DNA from: a virus
Taxonomy: Duplodnaviria > Heunggongvirae > Uroviricota > Caudoviricetes
Direction: 5' to 3' (one strand)
IMG/VR virus record: IMGVR_UViG_2639762987_000003
Length of the DNA: 48,166 bases
The notes under the pieces: model-generated
Seen by the model: only the letters and a program-made list of their open reading frames with translations
What the model was told of the DNA's origin: nothing
Databases searched by the model: none
Shown: positions 934-28,606 of the stretch, one piece after another
Numbering within the stretch: the stretch's first letter is position 1
How the letters are laid out: every line of letters starts with the position of its first letter
Translations under genes and position numbers: made by a program

Positions 934-1009
934 TGGTGGCCCCTACCGGATTTGAACCGATGACCGTGCGATTATGAGTCGCCTGCTCTAACCACTGAGC
1001 TAAGGGGCC
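934..1009 (-). tRNA. tRNA with CAU anticodon; acceptor, D and anticodon arms resemble E. coli tRNA-Ile2 (ileX-type), elongator tRNA-Met not excluded
   Basis: Reverse complement folds as a 76-nt cloverleaf: 7-bp acceptor stem GGCCCCT/AGGGGCC, D-arm GCTC-AGTGGTTA-GAGC, anticodon loop CTCATAA, T-arm ATCGG-TTCAAAT-CCGGT, terminal CCA encoded. Confidence 0.85.
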
Positions 1010-9324: not shown

Positions 9325-9343
9325 TTAACGAACTCCAGTTAAA

Positions 9344-9461
9344 ACCACGATACGTGGTATTAAAACCACATATCGTGAGTTTTTCAATGGGCGAAACAAA
9401 AAATAACCTTCTATTTGTGGTCCACCTCTCGTCTTACCATGTGAAAACCACTAAATGTGGT
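9344..9461. promoter_or_regulatory. Operator cluster: ACCAC-N5-GTGGT palindromes at 9344-9358 and 9447-9461, imperfect site at 9365-9379
   Basis: Perfect inverted-repeat half-sites with 5-bp spacer in the divergent promoter region; the 9447 site abuts a TATAAA -10-like element before the repressor start. Confidence 0.65.
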
Positions 9462-9498
9462 AATGTATAAATAACCCACCATTCACGATTGATGAGAC

Positions 9499-10155
9499 AT
9501 GAAAAGCAACGACGAGAACATCAAGAAAGAAATAGGTCTGCGCATTCAGACTCTACGGAAACAATCCGGCATGACTGCCGGAGATCTCCAGCAAGTCACT
9601 GGAATAGGCTTAAGCACCTTGCAGAACTATGAGGCCGGATTAAGACAACCATCTATACCTGCCATCAAGAAAATCGCGCACGCCCTGAAAGCATCAGCGC
9701 CTTATATCGCGTGCTTAACAGATAACCCGTTCCCACCCCAGAATACTAACGCTCCTGTTATTCCTGGGCTTGTAGCTATAAAAAATGACATAGCATCGCA
9801 CGCCGGAGAAAAGCCAGTGCTGGCGATAGAACAGGAGATTCTACGAAGCAAGAACATCAACCCATCGTCTCTGTCAGTTCTCCAGAGCAACGATGAGTTA
9901 ATGTCACCAACAATATCCCCAGGCTCCCAAGTCCTGATTAATACAGACGATACAGAGATTCATGAGGGGATCTATGCCCTTGAAGACAGAAATGGCCTGG
10001 TTGTTTTGAGGCACTGTAGAGTCATACCGGGTGACAATGCTGTTATGCTGTCAACCGAAAGGGATGCTGAAATGAACACTAAGCATCTGAATAACGAGGA
10101 ATTTAAGCGTTATAAAGTTCTTGGCCGCGTAGTTAGTGTTGTCAACTGGTTATGA
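9499..10155 (+). CDS. CI-like repressor (N-terminal HTH, C-terminal LexA/S24-like fold)
   Basis: HTH segment (MTAGDLQQVTGIGLSTLQNYEAG) and C-terminal domain alignable by eye to lambda CI; the Ser of the S24 'SM' motif appears replaced (DELMSPT). Confidence 0.7.
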   Translation: MKSNDENIKKEIGLRIQTLRKQSGMTAGDLQQVTGIGLSTLQNYEAGLRQPSIPAIKKIAHALKASAPYIACLTDNPFPPQNTNAPVIPGLVAIKNDIASHAGEKPVLAIEQEILRSKNINPSSLSVLQSNDELMSPTISPGSQVLINTDDTEIHEGIYALEDRNGLVVLRHCRVIPGDNAVMLSTERDAEMNTKHLNNEEFKRYKVLGRVVSVVNWL

Positions 10156-10197
10156 TACACAGCACGGCGAAAGCCGTGCATTTCTACGCTCAAAAAA

Positions 10198-10212
10198 ACC
10201 ACATTTTGTGGT
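10198..10212. promoter_or_regulatory. ACCAC-N5-GTGGT operator site next to a TTGACA -35-like hexamer
   Basis: accacattttgtggt immediately upstream of TTGACA, before the 10248 gene. Confidence 0.55.
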
Positions 10213-10247
10213 TTTGACAACATGTAAAAGTATAAAAGAGGCTACGC

Positions 10248-11937: not shown

Positions 11938-11963
11938 CATAAAAAAAGGCCCCCGAAGGGGCC
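11938..11963 (-). terminator. Rho-independent terminator for minus-strand transcription
   Basis: Stem aggcccc/ggggcct with GAA loop, followed on the minus strand by 7 U. Confidence 0.65.
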
Positions 11964-11969
11964 TAATCG

Positions 11970-12092
11970 CTACTTGCTGCTAATGTTTATCGTCACATTC
12001 AGAGCGTTATCAGTAATCTTCCAACCCTCCCCATGTGGCGTAAACAAAGCCCCAGTAACAACGATAAAAATACACATACAGTATTTTTTCAT
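11970..12092 (-). CDS. Candidate 40-aa hydrophobic peptide (possible type I toxin or small secreted peptide)
   Basis: MKKYCMCIFIVVTGALFTPHGEGWKITDNALNVTINISSK; AAGGG 8-12 nt upstream of the ATG; own terminator downstream. Confidence 0.35.
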   Translation of the reverse strand: MKKYCMCIFIVVTGALFTPHGEGWKITDNALNVTINISSK

Positions 12093-12415
12093 TGTATGGC
12101 CCTTACAGGCCGTTTCACGGCATCCCCACCGACGAAAACAACGCGAGAGCAAGCACGGCTGCTTGTGCTTGCATGTACGGCAACGGAGAATCCTCCCCTA
12201 AAGTCGGTGCCCGGGTGCGAATCGGCGGGAAGGTCCACAGGTATTTTACGATTATTTTAAGATTAGTAATAGGAAAGAAATTAAACGAAAAAACTCGTTT
12301 ATTTTCACAAAATCAGTAACCTACCCACAATCTGTGAGTTTGCAGGCACAACAAGAACCACAATTTTTTGAAGCATAATAGTGGACTATTATTACCTTTT
12401 GGGTAAAATTAACTT

Positions 12416-12516: not shown

Positions 12517-12535
12517 GTTTCTGCCTACCAATAAA

Positions 12536-12550
12536 CCCACGCTATGTGGT
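12536..12550. promoter_or_regulatory. Operator-like CCAC-N5-GTGG site upstream of the antirepressor leader
   Basis: cccacgctatgtggt, followed by TAAAAT (12560-12565) and TTGACA (12575-12580). Confidence 0.5.
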
Positions 12551-12585
12551 TGTCTCTGTTAAAATCCCGCCGTATTGACATGAAT

Positions 12586-12682
12586 GCGCCATTGGTGGAC
12601 ACTTTCCGAGCCGTAGCAAAATCTACGGTCGGGATTGGAACCCCGTGGACACAATGGCGCATACCGCGTTAGCGGTTTTTTT
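12586..12682 (+). ncRNA. Candidate structured regulatory RNA domain (P1 c4-like antisense RNA analogue)
   Basis: 9-bp closing stem gcgccattg/caatggcgc (12586-12594 with 12652-12660) encloses a hairpin and the element GAUUGGAACC; ends with a short hairpin plus 7 T. Confidence 0.35.
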
Positions 12683-12848
12683 ATGCGTAAAGCACTGCTA
12701 CACCCAAATTATGGTGGGGCGTGCGGGGGAGTCGTAAGACTCGCCGGTTCGTCATTGTGTCCGGTAGTTCCAACCCTGCACGTCTCACCACCCAATGATT
12801 GGAACCTGACGGTGGTGAGTATCCTTAACCTTTAAGGGAATCATCACA

Positions 12849-13040
12849 ATGACAAACCTACCCCATGACTATTACGTCAACCTCGTAAAGATCCTTCTCA
12901 AGAAAGCCTCATACGCCGATAAATTCCGCCTGGCTGAAATCATCGAGCGCGAAGCTATGCGCATCGCCAGCAACGATAACGCTGTTTCTGACGCAAAAAT
13001 CTCCCTCGTAACCAAAGTAGTTATGGGAGGTGCAAAATGA
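12849..13040 (+). CDS. Small protein upstream of and overlapping ant (icd-like position)
   Basis: 63-aa ORF with AAGGGA 9 nt upstream; its stop overlaps the ant start. Confidence 0.4.
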   Translation: MTNLPHDYYVNLVKILLKKASYADKFRLAEIIEREAMRIASNDNAVSDAKISLVTKVVMGGAK

Positions 13041-14179
13041 AAACGCTTCCGACCGTTAACACCCTACAGCCTATCCTGCATAACCAGATCCCCGTTATCA
13101 CTAGTGAACTTCTGGCGCAGTTATACGGAACAAAAATCAAAAACATTTCTGATAACTTTCTGAACAACACGACGCGATTCGTAGCCGGAAAGCATTACTT
13201 TAAAATTGAAAAAAACGAATTACGCGAGTTCAAGAACAGACCCGAAACAATCGGGTTAGTTGGTAAAAATGCCCGCTCCCTAATTCTCTGGACCGAACGC
13301 GGGGCTGCACGTCACGCTAAAATGCTCGAAACCGATCAGGCGTGGGATGTATTCGAACGGCTGGAAGACTGCTACTTCAACCAGAACGCGCAAACGGCCG
13401 CGACCGTAACCGTCTCGCCAAACAATGCTCGTGAGGTTGTCGATACGCTCAACGCCAAACCGATGTTTTACATTAAGGTGTGCAATAACGAGCCACTCAC
13501 AACCTCAGCCGATGTTGCCCAAGCATTCAGCACCACAAACAATTCCATCGTTATGGCCATCGATGCGTTACGCATTCCTCGCACAGCTGCGGCGCGTCAT
13601 TTCTTTAAAGAGCAACGACCGTTGGAAGGAAGCGACCGCGAAATAACAATCTATCGCATGACAAAAGACGGATTTACCTTGCTCATGGAGAGTATCGACG
13701 GTCCAGGCGTGAAAGATATCAAGCTGGCCTACATTGAAGCCTTTAACGCTATCAGCAGCGTGTTAAAAACACAGTACGAGCGTGATCTGGCTAAACGACT
13801 GTACCAGGAAAAAACGATTATCCGCGCGGCAACAGAGCATAATCGGCTATTAACGGAACCGAACTACAGGAAGGAACTAATAAAGGAGTTTGACAAGGCA
13901 ACAGGGAAAACCAAAGCGGCGCTAAATCTGCCAGCAATGACTCAGGAAAATGTGATATCAGCCTTACTTCTTGATCTGCTCAGAAACGCCAGAGCACTTA
14001 TCAGCTTTGACGAAAATCTGAACCCTCAGCTCAAACTACTACCACCGACAGGCAAAGTAGTCGACCAAGCTGATCACAACAGCATACTCAGCGTACTGGA
14101 TGCAAACCTGCCAGCCAGGACACTACAGGAACTGATAAAAATATCTGCGGATAAACTGGCCGCAGGTGCAAAACCATAA
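13037..14179 (+). CDS. Antirepressor (Ant-like)
   Basis: 380-aa protein whose N-terminal region resembles antirepressor N-terminal domains (ITSELLAQLYGTK...RFVAGKHYFKI...LWTERGAARHAKML). Confidence 0.7.
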   Translation: MKTLPTVNTLQPILHNQIPVITSELLAQLYGTKIKNISDNFLNNTTRFVAGKHYFKIEKNELREFKNRPETIGLVGKNARSLILWTERGAARHAKMLETDQAWDVFERLEDCYFNQNAQTAATVTVSPNNAREVVDTLNAKPMFYIKVCNNEPLTTSADVAQAFSTTNNSIVMAIDALRIPRTAAARHFFKEQRPLEGSDREITIYRMTKDGFTLLMESIDGPGVKDIKLAYIEAFNAISSVLKTQYERDLAKRLYQEKTIIRAATEHNRLLTEPNYRKELIKEFDKATGKTKAALNLPAMTQENVISALLLDLLRNARALISFDENLNPQLKLLPPTGKVVDQADHNSILSVLDANLPARTLQELIKISADKLAAGAKP

Positions 14180-16931: not shown

Positions 16932-17231
16932 TCAGATGTTAAACGCTATTCGTTTTCCTGTGGGAAGCTCAACATCCAGGCTTAATTTGCCTCCCATAGC
17001 TTCAACGTAACGCTTTAATGTCGCCAGCTTTAAATCATTTCCGCGCTGCTCCAGCTTTGTTACTGCTGGCTGGCTTATACCCATCGCCTCAGCAACCTGT
17101 TTTTGTGATAACTGGAGTTCTTCACGCATCATCTGCAAGCCGACCTCAAGAATCATCTCATCTGCCATTTCTTTAATTCGCGCCTGGCTTTCAGGTGAAC
17201 GGCTGGCAATCACCTCATCTAATGTTCTCAT
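16932..17231 (-). CDS. higA: HigA-like HTH antitoxin
   Basis: 99-aa HTH protein (LSQKQVAEAMGISQPAVTKLEQ) immediately downstream of the toxin gene, 1-nt overlap. Confidence 0.65.
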   Translation of the reverse strand: MRTLDEVIASRSPESQARIKEMADEMILEVGLQMMREELQLSQKQVAEAMGISQPAVTKLEQRGNDLKLATLKRYVEAMGGKLSLDVELPTGKRIAFNI

Positions 17232-17584
17232 TACTTGCTCTCCAGTGTGTTCAGATGTGCTGCAAACTCATCCTCAGCTATACGCACCAGTTTTTCATAA
17301 AACCGTTTATCGTTACTTTTGTCTCCTGCACAAAGAACGATGGCCCGGCGAATCGGATCGAACGCATAAAAGGCTCTGATCGGACGGCCAGAAAACTGAA
17401 CGCGAAGCTCTTTCATATTTTTGTACCGAGAACCTTTTACGGTATCGGCATATGGCCTGGGTAACTCAGGTCCGTAAACCTGTAGCTTTTTCAAATCAGC
17501 CAAAACCTTTTCCTGAAGAGCGTCTTCTTGCTCATTTAGCCAGTCGTCAAATCGCTGGCTAAAAAGTACCGTCCACATGCTCAA
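17231..17584 (-). CDS. higB: HigB/RelE-family toxin (Gp49-like addiction-module killer)
   Basis: 117-aa protein with segments typical of HigB-like toxins (PIRAFYAFDPIRRAIVLCAGDKSNDKRFYEKL); toxin-first gene order. Confidence 0.65.
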   Translation of the reverse strand: MSMWTVLFSQRFDDWLNEQEDALQEKVLADLKKLQVYGPELPRPYADTVKGSRYKNMKELRVQFSGRPIRAFYAFDPIRRAIVLCAGDKSNDKRFYEKLVRIAEDEFAAHLNTLESK

Positions 17585-18113: not shown

Positions 18114-18409
18114 ACATCTGTTTTGTTATCAATGAAGATTAACCCTAACCCAGCGAAGTAACACAGCAGCGCCCAGGCTGCATACGGAATGCTGGATCTG
18201 GATGTGGACTCCTTTAACATCTGCCAGTTGCGAACATTGCGACTATCTTTTAAGCCTAGTTTTTTGGCCAACTGCGAGCCACTCATTCCGGTGAGGCCAA
18301 TGACTGCCCGAACTTCTCCACATGTAGGAGATTCCCATTCATCCGCTTTTTTTAAACAAGCCGGATTCAACATTTTTAAAACAGTATCTTTATCCATAAC
18401 CATCTCCAT
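18110..18409 (-). CDS. Hypothetical HTH-containing protein
   Basis: 99-aa ORF with HTH-like segment (MSGSQLAKKLGLKDSRNVRNWQ); directly downstream of the origin-like region. Confidence 0.4.
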   Translation of the reverse strand: MEMVMDKDTVLKMLNPACLKKADEWESPTCGEVRAVIGLTGMSGSQLAKKLGLKDSRNVRNWQMLKESTSRSSIPYAAWALLCYFAGLGLIFIDNKTDV

Positions 18410-18779
18410 TTATTATATCTACGATGGTAGGAAATCTTTTCCTATGTGGCAATAGAAATTTACTACATTGCGTATAAGACAAGTTTTCTATGTCTAATAG
18501 GAAATGATGTTTCTTACGTTTTATCGCGTTCTGATGGCTACTGTGTGCGTATTTCTCGACGTTTATTGATAAGGCTCGCCCCTTCCTCCTGCAAAGCCCG
18601 GCCGTAGGCCTTATTTCGGCCTTATATAAATTGATTTTGTATAGTTCGAAACGCGCCGTTTCGAAAAGGATGATCAGGCTGCTCCATGCCTCCGGCAAGT
18701 GCCGGAGGAGGTATATTTGAGCGTAGCGACTCGAACCGGCGCGAGCTTTAGCTCGCTGCAAGGGCGAACATATTCACAG

Positions 18780-19040
18780 GCAAAGCCTGCGTAAGTTAAA
18801 TAAAGAAAGTCTTAATAAAAGAAAGTGATTTTGCATTTATTTGTTTAGTGCATCTATTATAAAAAACCATTTGCATATACATATCAAAACTGTGGATAAC
18901 TTTATTAGCCGATGCCTGTAAAGGCGATATTTTTGCTGTGTTCCGGTTTAGAGAAAATTAATTTAGATTGTTTTTTGAACAGATATTTTATTGCGACGTA
19001 GATAATCCTCCGGTAAAACCGGATTCATCATTCAGGTGGG
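18780..19040. other. Candidate plasmid origin region downstream of repA (AT-rich, DnaA box 18891-18899)
   Basis: TTATCCACA (as tgtggataa on the plus strand), repeated ATTTGCAT motifs and a ccggtaaaaccgg hairpin; GC-rich hairpins follow at 18590-18780. Confidence 0.45.
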
Positions 19041-19889
19041 TTAATGTTGGAGTGATTTCCAGGTCTTTCTTAACCTGTTATAACGCTGCTCAACGAGGGA
19101 TCGTAAATATGCAAGGTCAGCTCCAGGATACATGCCATCAGCAAATTCCTGGCTAACCTCTCTAGTGATTTGATGACGAAGTTCGGCCTCTCCCTTTTCC
19201 CGAACAAGACGCGCAGCTCTCTCCGCTGCTTTCTGTTTTGCCTTTATCTCTCTGGCCGTCTTCCTCTGATGCCATACATTCTCCATCTGCTCCTGAATAA
19301 CAATACGCTTATAATCAGCCTCCGTTATCGCTTTTTTAAGCCGTTCGCTATTCTTCGCATTGAAGTAATTAAGTTTCTGGCTAACCGCACGTCTCCATGC
19401 TTGTTCAGTAATACCAACGGTTTCCAGCAGTTGATCACGAATCTCTATTTTCGCTGGCCAATACTGTTTATTCACCCGATCCCAGCGACGTTCATAATCA
19501 ATAAAACCTAACGCTTTCAGTTGCGACAACGCCCTTGTACAGCGCGTTATAGACTTGTTCCCAGCTTCGGATACGGTAGACAGGCCGCAAAAATCAGCCA
19601 ACGCCTCAGCACTGGCCAGAACCCGCTTAGAAATGATGTTTACATGGTGCAAAATCGCAGCGATCACAGCATTAATCGCCCGACGACGATGCTCGTTTAT
19701 CCGGCGCTTCCGCTCTGACGGTTGATTAACGTAGAACGCAACCTCACACGTAAGATCACGCCCATTAATGCGCTGTAAAGCATCAGATAACACCAGCGGC
19801 AGCTTGTGCGTATGGTGCTTTGGAGGCTGGAACTCCGGCGACAAATTACAAACGTAAGCTGAACGTAGAGACGGCATTGGTCTATCCAT
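19041..19889 (-). CDS. repA: IncFII-type RepA1-like replication initiator
   Basis: Segment KSITRCTRALSQLKALGFIDYE matches the RepA1 core as recalled; start set at Met 44 of the track ORF to give about 282 aa. Confidence 0.75.
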   Translation of the reverse strand: MDRPMPSLRSAYVCNLSPEFQPPKHHTHKLPLVLSDALQRINGRDLTCEVAFYVNQPSERKRRINEHRRRAINAVIAAILHHVNIISKRVLASAEALADFCGLSTVSEAGNKSITRCTRALSQLKALGFIDYERRWDRVNKQYWPAKIEIRDQLLETVGITEQAWRRAVSQKLNYFNAKNSERLKKAITEADYKRIVIQEQMENVWHQRKTAREIKAKQKAAERAARLVREKGEAELRHQITREVSQEFADGMYPGADLAYLRSLVEQRYNRLRKTWKSLQH

Positions 19890-19899
19890 ATGTTCGCTC

Positions 19900-20010
19900 T
19901 TGCGTCCACGGAAAACCAACGTATAATGGGAGTTGTCGAGGCGCCCATGGTTAGTTGTTGGTTTTCCGTGGATGTCGCAAGAAGCCCGCAGATTTATCTG
20001 CGGGCTTTTT
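19900..20010 (+). ncRNA. Candidate CopA-like antisense RNA over the repA leader
   Basis: 15-bp inverted repeat (19906-19920 with 19957-19971) followed by a perfect rho-independent terminator (19983-20010), both on the strand opposite to repA. Confidence 0.35.
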
Positions 20011-20054
20011 GTTTCCATATCTGGTCACTTTCCAACCAGACACCCACAATCATA

Positions 20055-20069
20055 ACCACGTTACGTGGT
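20055..20069. promoter_or_regulatory. ACCAC-N5-GTGGT operator site upstream of the repA leader
   Basis: accacgttacgtggt; same palindrome family as the repressor operators. Confidence 0.55.
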
Positions 20070-20484
20070 TTTAAGAGAACTCTACCACAACACTTTCGGT
20101 CATGCACGAAGTCTCTCACTGATCGAACGATAATCCACCAGTAAAAGGATCTAAATTGGATCTCGTTTTGCGAGCATCATACTACTGGCCTAACTCCAGT
20201 CAATGATTCCCAGCCAGAAACCTGCGGTAAACTCATCGTTCAGCAATATGCTGTCCGGCTTCAAAGATAAGGTGACATCATCCCTTAACAGCGCGGCCAG
20301 TTCAGTTAAAGGGCTGTTCTGATTTAATGCTGGCCACTCATACCTGGTAATAAGTGGTCAGTCTTAACACTCACCATTTGATTGCACCCGTGTTGACGAT
20401 TTGTTACTGGATATCAGACACGCTGGATAGCCAGTAGAAACATACCATTAAAATTATTACAATAATTGGTCACATGATTATCTT

Positions 20485-21048
20485 ATGCTGAATAATAAAG
20501 ATATGAATATTAATGAACTTAAAGACTGTATTCACTATGAAGTAATCGGTAGCGAGCGTCCTTTCTCCTGGCGAAAGGCAATTGTTCGCGCAATAAAACA
20601 TAGAAGGGTTCGTTATTTATTTTGGTGGCGCATAGCCAAATACCTTTTTGATAAAGGCGGATACTGTCGGAAGATTGCGGGAAAAATAGAACGTTTCATT
20701 CTTGATAAATATAATGTAACAGTCCCTTTAACTGTAAATATAGGGAAAGGCTTTGATATTTCTTATCTCAACAGTGTTGTTATCGGTCACAAAGTAACAA
20801 TCGGTGAAAATTGTTCAATTAAGCCCGGAGTAACTATTGGACTTCGCGGGGAATTTAATGATATGGATATTGTTATAGGGCATAATGTGACCATTGGTTG
20901 TAATGCCACCATTCTTGGTGGCAAAGTGCGTATAGGAAACAATGTCACAATAGGTGCTCATGCATTGGTATTGCATGATATTCCTGATGATTCAACATTC
21001 ATCACTAAATTTCAGTCTGAAGTTATCTGCTCGTCCTCCCGAACATAA
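20485..21048 (+). CDS. Hexapeptide-repeat (left-handed beta-helix) acyl/acetyltransferase; candidate moron
   Basis: Repeated [LIV]-G-x-x-x-x hexapeptides ([22 protein letters not shown]...[32 protein letters not shown]); AT-rich segment; converges on the tail-fibre assembly gene. Confidence 0.7.
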
Positions 21049-27604: not shown

Positions 27605-28606
27605 TTAATACCCATTAATTACTCTTCGGACATCAATCGAGGTGGTATAACCACTAGTCCCAATTGAATGCACAGCTTTCGATATAAGATATTTTCCAGA
27701 AAATGAACCGAATCCCTCCAGATTTATAGTTACACCAGCTACCAATCTGGTGTCTCCAACCAATACTAAAGATCCGGTATTTTGATATCTATTTTTAAGC
27801 CGCAAAGCAGCCTTTGCCTTACGTTTTGCTTCATCTAAATTAGCTACCAGTTTTCTTATCTTAAGATTCGACCCTTCTTCTACGGATGGATCTACCCAAG
27901 TATACGAAAGCGACTTTCTTTTTTTAGGTACGCGATATTTGCACGTGCAACTTTTATACAAATCTGTAGATTGTGTGCTAAAGCTATATCTGATTATCTC
28001 ATCAATACCTAACGTAAGCGTAGCGATAGGATCTTTTTGCTCAAACATCTCTTGAGCAAATATTATTAATTGGCTATCAGTGACCTTTAACGACAACCCT
28101 TCATCCTGGCAAAGTCGATGGAGAAATTTTAAATCGCTTTCCTCCATTTGATCTTCACGTGCATAATATGGATTACTATCACCATCAATAAGAAACAACA
28201 GTTCAAGGTTAGCTAATTTAGCTATAGAAGTTGCTATATCTTTAAGAGTTGTTTTTTCCCATGCATTACTTTTTAAATCACGTCTAATGCCTGATGAAAT
28301 AGGAACAGAAACAGCAGTTACCTCAACCACAGAAGGTGGTCCAGAGCAAGTTATGCCATCTACCTGGAATTTCCCGCACTCAAGGACGATTTGATTTATA
28401 GGCTTAAAGCTCAAATCAATAAAATCACCCTTTTTAGGTGTCCAGTCTCCAGACCATTTCCCATCATCATTTTTTAATATAATAGAAATATCATCGACCT
28501 GACCATCTTCATTATCTGTATAAGACATTGACAAAACATCAGGTGACATATGAGCGGTAATATTTACATTCTGATATATAACATCAAAAAGCGTTTTACG
28601 TAACAC
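27605..28606 (-). CDS. Tail protein, P2 gpD-like
   Basis: 333-aa protein immediately after the tape measure and X-like genes. Confidence 0.55.
   Translation of the reverse strand: MLRKTLFDVIYQNVNITAHMSPDVLSMSYTDNEDGQVDDISIILKNDDGKWSGDWTPKKGDFIDLSFKPINQIVLECGKFQVDGITCSGPPSVVEVTAVSVPISSGIRRDLKSNAWEKTTLKDIATSIAKLANLELLFLIDGDSNPYYAREDQMEESDLKFLHRLCQDEGLSLKVTDSQLIIFAQEMFEQKDPIATLTLGIDEIIRYSFSTQSTDLYKSCTCKYRVPKKRKSLSYTWVDPSVEEGSNLKIRKLVANLDEAKRKAKAALRLKNRYQNTGSLVLVGDTRLVAGVTINLEGFGSFSGKYLISKAVHSIGTSGYTTSIDVRRVINGY

Follow-up and report, generated by a model that had tools for sequence, protein, structure and literature searches.

Positions 18575-20203 of the viral sequence IMGVR_UViG_2639762987_000003, a Caudoviricetes record of 48,166 nucleotides (nt) that was analysed as a whole and is called the window here, are, judged by their gene context and distribution, the plasmid-maintenance replicon of a phage-plasmid of ~48 kb with P2-like tail genes. 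The model we favour, and consider probable without being sure of it, is a replicon of the broad IncFII/IncL-M initiator family in which an antisense RNA would control the initiator gene, repA, by refolding its leader, the origin would lie downstream of repA, and a repressor operator would sit in the leader. A bolder reading, which we hold tentatively and rate a little short of even, is that this is a third, previously undescribed IncFII/L-M control design. In such a design the antisense promoter would lie within an anti-sequestor hairpin of the mRNA, the antisense RNA would flip the start codon into sequestration without leader peptide or pseudoknot, a hypervariable loop would give rise to many compatibility types, and control by the prophage repressor would allow a single origin to be used in plasmid maintenance and in lytic replication alike. 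Sequence and comparison establish the family membership of RepA, the location on plasmids, the conserved and covarying structures and the hypervariable loop; all of the mechanism (expression and ends of the RNA, refolding, binding by repressor and by RepA, priming) is inferred, across few independent lineages. A preliminary description of this DNA had named an IncFII-like replicon with CopA-type antisense control; every feature that it listed is present where, or close to where, it had been placed, and its interpretation is partly supported, right in outline and in need of correction in detail.

A predicted antisense RNA and predicted refolding in the repA leader

Two sets of relatives carry the comparison: group A, the near relatives of the window, and group B, a set at 60% identity. 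Control regions were compared over 22 distinct variants, gathered by running a pattern made from the most conserved stretch over viral and metagenomic contigs and adding the loci already collected, whereas the origin was aligned over 13 relatives drawn from group A, group B, a conjugative-plasmid relative (L014) and a pKPC_UVA01-like plasmid (L061).

RepA belongs to the broad IncFII/IncL-M family and appears only distantly related to IncFII. It matches the Pfam family IncFII_repA (PF02387; E=1.2e-43, from residue 52 onward) and passes the broad NCBIfam model RepA_IncFII_LM (NF040977; 231.7 bits against a cut-off of 70, which speaks for the broad family only), and it fails the strict incFII_RepA model (TIGR03474; 77.9 bits against 446.9). 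Identity to a classical IncFII/FIC RepA is 36% over 121 residues, and to the RepA of L061 37% over 274 residues; a sequence search of the PDB returned no informative solved relative. Of the IncFII-like replicon in the preliminary description there remains a RepA-type theta replicon of an IncFII-related family, with its origin downstream and a DnaA box; the close kinship to IncFII does not remain, given the score on the strict model. The RefSeq open reading frame (ORF) of repA spans 19041-20018 (325 amino acids), and its annotated start, ATG 20018, is not conserved in relatives; the annotated gene crosses both the terminator hairpin and the long leader hairpin described below (19890-20018, minus strand). 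Relatives with 59-85% identity are 274-284 amino acids long and start at the equivalent of M48, and ATG 19889 is preceded by AAGAG at 7 nt. The likeliest repA start, on this comparison, is ATG 19889, and the first 43-47 annotated codons, which overlap the control region, probably do not form part of the translated RepA.

Opposite the repA leader there very probably lies an antisense RNA gene. On the plus strand, the hexamers TTGC(G/A)T and TATAAT, separated by 16 or 18 nt, recur in 22 of 22 variants (TTGCAT-18-TATAAT in group B), and they persist while the inverted-repeat arms around them are wholly different between the groups (CCACGGAAAACCAAC in group A versus GTCAGCCAGGGCCACAC in group B). 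With transcription beginning ~6-8 nt past the -10 hexamer, the RNA would start near 19933, and with an end in the U-run near 20014 it would measure ~80-85 nt. The stretch 19932-20016 folds with -39.2 kcal/mol (z=-6.05 against shuffled sequences), and 21 of 21 variants fold alike, into a 5' tail of 7-10 nt, a first stem-loop (SL1) and a terminator stem-loop (SL2). In all 21, SL1 is more stable on the plus strand than is its mirror on the sense strand, by 6.9 kcal/mol on average, and it makes use of G.U pairs; this greater stability argues that the structure has been selected on the plus strand. The terminator hairpin that had been reported opposite the leader is there as well (19978-20011, followed by a T-run on the plus strand), with three covarying pairs between groups A and B. 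A simple terminator scan missed it, the stem running into the T-run, and a joint antisense alignment of groups A and B recovered the terminator only, hence SL1 was analysed sequence by sequence.

Rfam searches of 18400-20500, run with the gathering threshold and again with E<=10, turned up no CopA, only terminator-like partial matches (Thr_leader, CsrC) that cover the terminator. The CopA-type control named in the preliminary description thus divides: an antisense RNA gene opposite the leader is very probable, and the CopA identity falls away, there being neither an Rfam match nor a conserved leader peptide resembling Tap.

What would such an RNA act on? The inverted repeat reported earlier at 15 bp is present and perfect over 16 bp (19905-19920 / 19957-19972), growing to ~22 bp with the extension CUUGCG/CGCAAG, and its best reading is a repA-mRNA hairpin rather than a stem of the antisense RNA: with the antisense promoter situated within the repeat, only the repA mRNA can form the long hairpin. 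The antisense RNA is complementary to the apex and the 5' arm of this hairpin, not to its 3' arm. In group A the long hairpin has 99.1% of cells paired and 4 compensatory pairs, and in its place group B has an inverted repeat, likewise forming a hairpin, with an unrelated sequence. If the stretch running from the 3' arm to the repA start is folded by itself, another structure results, in which CGUUGGUUUUCCGUG pairs with UAUGGA-U-AGACCAAUG and covers both ATGs. This alternative hairpin is predicted in five of five group-A lineages (z -2.6 to -6.2); the partners differ among them (ACCAAUG, CCAGCG, UUCAACG, UUCAAC, CCAAC), and all pair with an invariant CGUUGG. For most group-B variants the predicted fold joins the 3' arm to the Shine-Dalgarno region and to the opening codons of the gene downstream. 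When the antisense RNA is left out of the fold, the long hairpin wins and the repA start region is open, and when leader and antisense RNA are cofolded, the result is a duplex of ~80 bp together with the sequestering hairpin, both ATGs being paired.

The best model for these folds is a predicted anti-sequestor/sequestor switch flipped by the antisense RNA. RepA synthesis would be limited by a constitutive plus-strand RNA of ~80 nt. In its absence the leader would form the long hairpin and leave the ribosome-binding region of repA free; in its presence, first contact with the mRNA would probably be made through the hypervariable apical loop of SL1, after which the antisense RNA would pair with the 5' arm of the long hairpin, and the freed 3' arm would pair with the repA start region and hide both candidate start codons.

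Several points weigh against this picture. The -35 hexamer of the antisense promoter matches the consensus at 3 of 6 positions only, a promoter scan made no call for it, and expression of the RNA is a prediction. The refolding is a thermodynamic prediction, made over about five independent lineages in group A and a few in group B; the alternative helix has one invariant side and therefore displays one-sided changes, not full covariation, and in one group-B sequence the alternative fold is no better than shuffled sequences (z=-1.5). A 14-nt apical sequence, GCCUCGACAACUCC, is invariant, for which the model gives no explanation, and the 22-bp mRNA hairpin could be a substrate of RNase III, which would alter the picture.

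SL1 carries the most variable nucleotides of the region. Among 14 distinct sequences that share at least 97.8% identity across 1.7 kb, 12 variable columns fall in the 25-nt bin 19950-19974, against a mean of ~1.8 per bin and none in 19875-19949 and 19975-20024. At least eight loop alleles are found (TTAGTTG, TTAATTG, ATTGTTG, ATTGTTGTTG, ATATTGTTG, ATATGTTTG, ATTGTTTTG and one with an insertion), and the hypervariable patch coincides with the SL1 apical loop in groups A and B alike. In plasmids of the I-complex, single nucleotides of the RNAI loop determine incompatibility (PMC10724649); by this precedent, and given its variability, the SL1 loop is a plausible determinant of plasmid specificity. 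Replication slippage in the TTG repeats, rather than selection, could also produce loop variation, although substitutions occur too. None of 71 complete E. coli genomes that carry the replicon holds two such plasmids with different loops.

Other features of the leader deserve mention. GCCUCGACAACUCC (mRNA sense, 19935-19948) is kept in groups A and B alike despite their wholly different arms, and the antisense RNA carries its complement in the 5' tail. A small hairpin (UCUGGU/ACCAGA, 20020-20040) lies upstream of the antisense target, with minor loop variability at ~20027-20030 among near-identical plasmids. Upstream of repA stands a conserved AUGGA, which shares the reading frame of repA in the window, opens a short repA-overlapping ORF in some group-A relatives, and in group B starts an ORF of 158 amino acids between control region and repA (L019 3528-4004, L020 1236-1712, L022 112-588; also L018, L011 and L012). 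That ORF is a paralogue of the N-terminal half of RepA (46.5 bits to NF040977); its stop overlaps the repA start (ATGA), and its start codon aligns with ATG 19889 of the window.

The operator-like palindrome and rival readings of the leader

Transcription of repA would start from P1 and probably also from a second, extended -10 promoter, P2 (Table 1). P1 is kept in group-A relatives, and group B has TTGACG-16-TAGAAT at the same place; P2 is proposed on the strength of consensus and conservation, both groups having TGnTAGAGT at 7-12 nt ahead of a palindrome. All relatives have two or three GATC sites at the 20148-20162 position, which hints at control of repA transcription by Dam/SeqA or by a protein.

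The palindrome, AACCAC-N5-GTGGTT, occurs at 6 sites in the window against 0.05 expected, and an 84% relative carries the same motif in its leader and at sites 7-8 kb away. The further sites in the window lie at 9343-9359 and 9446-9462 (a divergent region beside the CI-like gene, 9499-10155), at 10197-10213 (after the CI-like gene and ahead of a ParA-like operon), at 12535-12551 (before the isrK/C4/ant region) and at 28325-28341 (inside a tail gene, perhaps by chance). The arrangement suggests one repressor regulon that would take in lytic genes, partition, antirepressor and replication. Between P1 and repA there is no conserved ORF that could be a copB, and an operator-like palindrome is found there instead; the suggestion that a phage operator takes the place of CopB fits this layout. 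The palindrome, which is of the operator type found in the CI-like region, overlaps P2, and the prophage repressor would then replace CopB and could release replication on induction. Because no second replication initiator is seen in the window, where there is only a DUF3560/primase-like gene, derepression of repA on induction could also serve lytic replication, which is speculation on our part.

Against an operator stand the facts that the group-B palindrome at the leader position, ACTAC-N5-GTAG, is not tied to a group-B repressor, a scan with the CI-like protein of the window having returned near-identical elements only, and that binding of the phage repressor to the leader palindrome is a prediction. 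Could the site be something else? It might bind RepA, as autoregulation, or a host factor, its resemblance to the immunity region being coincidental, and this would agree with the difference seen in group B and with the position of one of the six sites (28325) inside a tail gene. We think it unlikely: besides the excess of sites over expectation, four of them fall in the control regions of immunity, par and ant beside the CI-like gene, the 84% relative pairs its leader site with distant ones, and the origin, where RepA must bind, has no similar palindrome. A repressor operator is the reading we retain.

A rival for the leader itself, which we judge rather improbable, is the CopA-type RNA of ~110 nt that the preliminary description had expected, comprising the whole inverted repeat and the terminator; repA would be coupled to a leader peptide that this RNA blocks, the mode of action known from R1. 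On the plus strand, the 117 nt of 19900-20016 do fold very stably (-69.5 kcal/mol, z=-11.2 against shuffled sequences), and upstream of 19900, where a promoter for such an RNA was sought by eye, there is a weak match, TAGAGA-17-TATGTT. That match is not conserved, whereas TTGCGT-16-TATAAT inside the repeat is invariant, and both the G.U pairs of SL1 and the placement of the hypervariable loop need a start inside the repeat; the conserved promoter gives a predicted RNA of ~80 nt from which the left arm is excluded, and the length of ~110 nt is not supported. For the leader peptide one might point to ATG 19948, in the apex of the mRNA hairpin, the first codon of an ORF (MGASTTPIIRW...) kept across group A and extending past the repA start, but this ATG lacks a Shine-Dalgarno sequence, and group B does not have it; there is no Rfam CopA, and indels shift the frame of every candidate leader ORF in relatives. 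Leader peptides from TTG 20049, GTG 20119, ATG 20018 and ATG 19948 were set aside for these frame shifts between relatives, ATG 20018 also for its lack of conservation and ATG 19948 for its loss in group B. No tap-like leader ORF is kept in frame across the relatives, and the upstream AUG of the window is in frame with repA.

Still less probable is control of the I-complex/IncL-M kind. That design comprises a single-hairpin RNAI, a UUGGCG target loop, a leader peptide and a pseudoknot: the antisense RNA blocks the leader peptide and the activating pseudoknot between the target loop and a site beside the repA ribosome-binding site. RepA passes the IncFII/L-M model, exactly this layout occurs in the relatives L014 (RepA 63% identical) and L061 (37%), and in some group-A relatives a conserved upstream AUG opens a short ORF overlapping repA. 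The window itself looks different: neither TTGGCG nor CGCCAA occurs in 19850-20210, no UUGGCG loop or pseudoknot partner was found in its leader, the surroundings of the repA start show no complement of the apical loop, the upstream AUG shares the frame of repA, and the predicted antisense RNA has two stem-loops.

Equally doubtful is the view that the antisense RNA acts mainly through mRNA processing and decay (RNase III on the perfect duplex of ~80 bp that is predicted) or through premature termination, for which the GC-rich hairpin 19978-20011 on the sense strand could be cited, since that hairpin is followed by CUUCUUGCG, a poor U-run, without a call from the terminator scan, and since a start-codon hairpin kept in both groups in unrelated sequences would go unexplained. 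The refolding switch is the reading that we carry forward.

Origin, element and genomic context

RepA, encoded on the minus strand, would act on an origin ~150 bp downstream of repA. As had been noted, TGTGGATAA at 18891-18899 is a perfect DnaA box, the only one in the 48 kb, one-mismatch boxes occurring at chance level; it is kept in 10 of 13 relatives and in a one-mismatch version in an eleventh. Beyond it, TGCAT recurs at 18832, 18849 and 18872, and the ATTTGCAT motif that had been reported as repeated downstream of repA is one of these three ATGCA-type repeats, whose ATGC is invariant in 13 of 13 relatives, L061 included. By analogy with the R1 model the repeats probably bind RepA, and the AT-rich stretch beside them is a candidate site of melting; group B carries a GATC within it.

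The origin-distal core holds two hairpins, H1 and H2, with 97% of cells paired and compensatory change in 6 of 11 pairs, and the span between the DnaA box and the far edge of the core measures 174-182 bp in the 13 relatives. Read in repA orientation, the conserved order is post-stop hairpin, CAAAAAACA, a variable stretch, DnaA box, three repeats, AT-rich stretch and core. Covarying stems stand beside invariant single-stranded blocks, which argues for a structure of the nucleic acid and not merely a protein-binding palindrome. The GC-rich hairpins pointed out before are present (18575-18789), two of them with compensatory changes; group A retains those at 18575-18708, and group B and L061 retain part of them. 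The idea that such hairpins serve single-strand initiation is reasonable by analogy, and the structured GC-rich hairpins of the origin may prime the leading strand. Replication of R1 moves away from repA, and if this direction is valid here, the leading strand would be copied leftward from the plus strand.

Table 1. Elements of the replicon and its control region, in window coordinates
Feature	Position	Strand	Remarks
P1, promoter-like site TTGACT-16-TATGAT	20176..20203	-	10/12 consensus match; left edge of the conserved replicon module
GATCC-N6-GATCC pair (two Dam sites)	20148..20162		just past the P1 start; sites 11 nt apart
Extended -10-like element TGGTAGAGT	20079..20087	-	candidate P2, ~90 nt downstream of P1
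Operator-like palindrome AACCACGTTACGTGGTT	20054..20070		at ~+2 to +19 of candidate P2
Predicted antisense RNA, ~80-85 nt	19933..20016	+	5' tail, SL1 (19940-19976), terminator SL2 (19977-20012 and U-run)
Hypervariable patch, SL1 apical loop	19951..19957	+	candidate specificity (incompatibility) determinant
Antisense promoter (predicted)	19900..19927	+	TTGCGT (19900-19905), 16-nt spacer, TATAAT (19922-19927); spacer is the left arm of the inverted repeat
Long repA-mRNA hairpin	19899..19981	-	5' arm 19972-19957, 3' arm 19920-19905, base CUUGCG/CGCAAG; proposed anti-sequestor, ON state
Alternative hairpin	19875..19921	-	3' arm with UAUGGAUAGACCAAUG, burying ATG 19889 and ATG 19877; proposed sequestor, OFF state
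repA coding sequence	19041..19889	-	probable start ATG 19889 (M44 of the annotated ORF); second in-frame ATG 19877
Hairpin TCCGG-N5-CCGGA	19009..19023	-	directly after the repA stop; covariation (CCAG/CTGG in group B)
DnaA box TTATCCACA	18891..18899	-	146 bp past the repA stop
Three ATGCA(A/C) repeats: TATGCAAATGG, GATGCAC, AATGCAAAATCAC	18825..18881	-	candidate RepA binding sites
AT-rich stretch with 15-nt direct repeat (D4)	18796..18824		candidate unwinding region; AT-rich in all relatives
Origin-distal core: H1 (18777-18789), ATATG, CGCCCTTGCAGCG, H2 (18741-18756), GCCGGTTCG	18730..18789		
Further GC-rich hairpins 18689-18708, 18645-18665, 18575-18615	18575..18708		candidate single-strand initiation signal

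The distribution of the replicon bears on the nature of the element. The 2 kb around it are 100% identical to many non-mobilizable E. coli plasmids of 47-50 kb, p853EC2 among them, and 99% identical to three Yersinia pestis phages of ~49 kb each. Among 5,426 complete E. coli genomes 71 (~1.3%) contain the replicon, at 81 places, every one of them on a plasmid and none on a chromosome, and the carrier plasmids measure ~47-52 kb. Its neighbours are P2-like tail and tail-fibre genes, a CI-like repressor, a ParA-like gene and a HigB-like toxin pair, together with a C4 antisense RNA of the P1/P7 type and an antirepressor-like gene. With every replicon place plasmid-borne and phage genes as neighbours, we conclude that the window is a phage-plasmid and the studied feature its plasmid replicon. 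Literature searches found no published work on the replicon of this phage-plasmid family, only P1-like, SSU5-like and unrelated Yersinia phages. A protein-guided scan of GTDB genome contigs returned no relatives; a DNA-pattern scan of the same contigs gave one match, in Actinomycetota, which was discarded as chance, as were three similar matches from a metagenome scan.

Other parts of the element are of interest in their own right. The quality-control strain ATCC 25922 (e.g. NZ_CP009073.1) carries a family member of 48,488 bp that is 98.6% identical across the replicon. At 1.5 kb from the origin, a Gp49/HigB-like toxin gene (17231-17584) and a helix-turn-helix antitoxin gene (16932-17231) probably form an addiction module for the plasmid state (16932-17584); in some relatives HicAB occupies this place. 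The slot between replicon and tail-fibre genes (20485-21048) is a position of variable cargo, with a hexapeptide-repeat transferase in the window and a Hin-type DNA invertase in the Yersinia phages and several relatives (L002, L016, L024). Rfam matches above the gathering threshold comprise ryfA (11942-12238, minus strand), isrK (12610-12682, plus strand), the C4 antisense RNA of P1/P7-type immunity (12707-12795, plus strand) and a tRNA (937-1009, minus strand); an ORF6N/Rha antirepressor-like gene (13037-14179) lies downstream of the C4 RNA.

Relation to known replicons

The closest parallels are with the IncFII plasmids R1 and R100. The initiators fall into one Pfam family, repA is followed by a hairpin past its stop and by the origin, whose edge nearest to repA carries a DnaA box, a predicted antisense RNA gene lies opposite the leader, and of two candidate tandem promoters the downstream one is beside a putative repressor site. 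A classical plasmid of the IncFII type (IncFIC/FII) likewise has the post-stop hairpin, CAAAAAACA, a DnaA box at +178 and a looser counterpart of H1/H2. In R1, a constitutive PcopB is paired with a CopB-repressed PrepA, CopB acting on the downstream promoter of the two, and CopA acts by preventing translation of the tap leader peptide, that of repA being coupled to it (PMC5717011). The R1 origin, oriR, spans 188 bp, comparable to the conserved span of 174-182 bp found here, and replicates unidirectionally by the theta mode, and DnaA binds its box there only with RepA bound beside it (PMC5883639). The differences are as clear: here RepA fails the strict IncFII model, CopA homology, a conserved tap-like ORF and copB are lacking, the putative repressor site matches phage operators, and the antisense promoter lies inside an mRNA hairpin, inhibition being predicted to work by refolding and not by a block of a leader peptide. 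Because the antisense region has no sequence similarity to CopA, incompatibility with IncFII plasmids is not expected.

With the I-complex and IncL/M plasmids the replicon shares the broad RepA family (NF040977), a predicted antisense control of translation and loop nucleotides expected to set specificity, and its predicted sequestering hairpin over the repA start is comparable to their stem-loop III. It differs in having no UUGGCG/CGCCAA, no leader peptide and no pseudoknot partner, in the two stem-loops of its predicted antisense RNA, and in that activation apparently comes from an RNA anti-sequestor arm and not from leader translation and a pseudoknot. L014 (3840-4010) and L061 (3700-3850) each have the UUGGCG loop, a leader peptide (15 and 17 amino acids) overlapping a GTG start, and a distal CGCCA. 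These two relatives have a leader of the I-complex/IncL-M type yet the origin core of the window; within this RepA clade, therefore, one control region has been exchanged for another or remodelled. Should the model be true, a purely RNA-structural switch joins the two classic control paradigms of the RepA family, the SL1 loop becomes a sequence marker that predicts compatibility groups among these elements, and the public annotation of repA is too long by ~43-47 codons, which lie across the control region.

Phage G4 offers a parallel for the origin hairpins, though a weak one. Its origin is laid out as three stem-loops with CTG on the 3' side (PMC6783573), and on the plus strand of the window CTG likewise stands 3' of three stem-loops within 18645-18758 (18645-18665, 18689-18708 and 18741-18756, the CTG after H2 being 18756-18758), a trinucleotide common enough to be frequent by chance. 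There is no sequence similarity: blastn of 18560-18800 against a phage collection at E<=10 gave no match to the G4 origin, nor to any phage besides the element's own relatives. The most conserved hairpins here, moreover, lie within the fixed origin unit of ~180 bp and not well beyond it.

The last comparison is with the phages N15 and phiKO2. The RepA of N15 is of the primase-helicase type and unrelated to that of the window, N15 is a linear plasmid, the operators are different, and an IncFII-like origin is absent. The proposed likeness lies in the placing of repressor operators at the rep promoter: in N15 and phiKO2 the operators bound by the CB repressor stand at the promoter of repA, and this binding reduces the copy number (PMC4997575), and in the window the palindrome at candidate P2 is a motif of the immunity region, its binding by the repressor being predicted only. 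If the model proposed here is true, the element shows a phage placing a plasmid replicon under its own immunity repressor.

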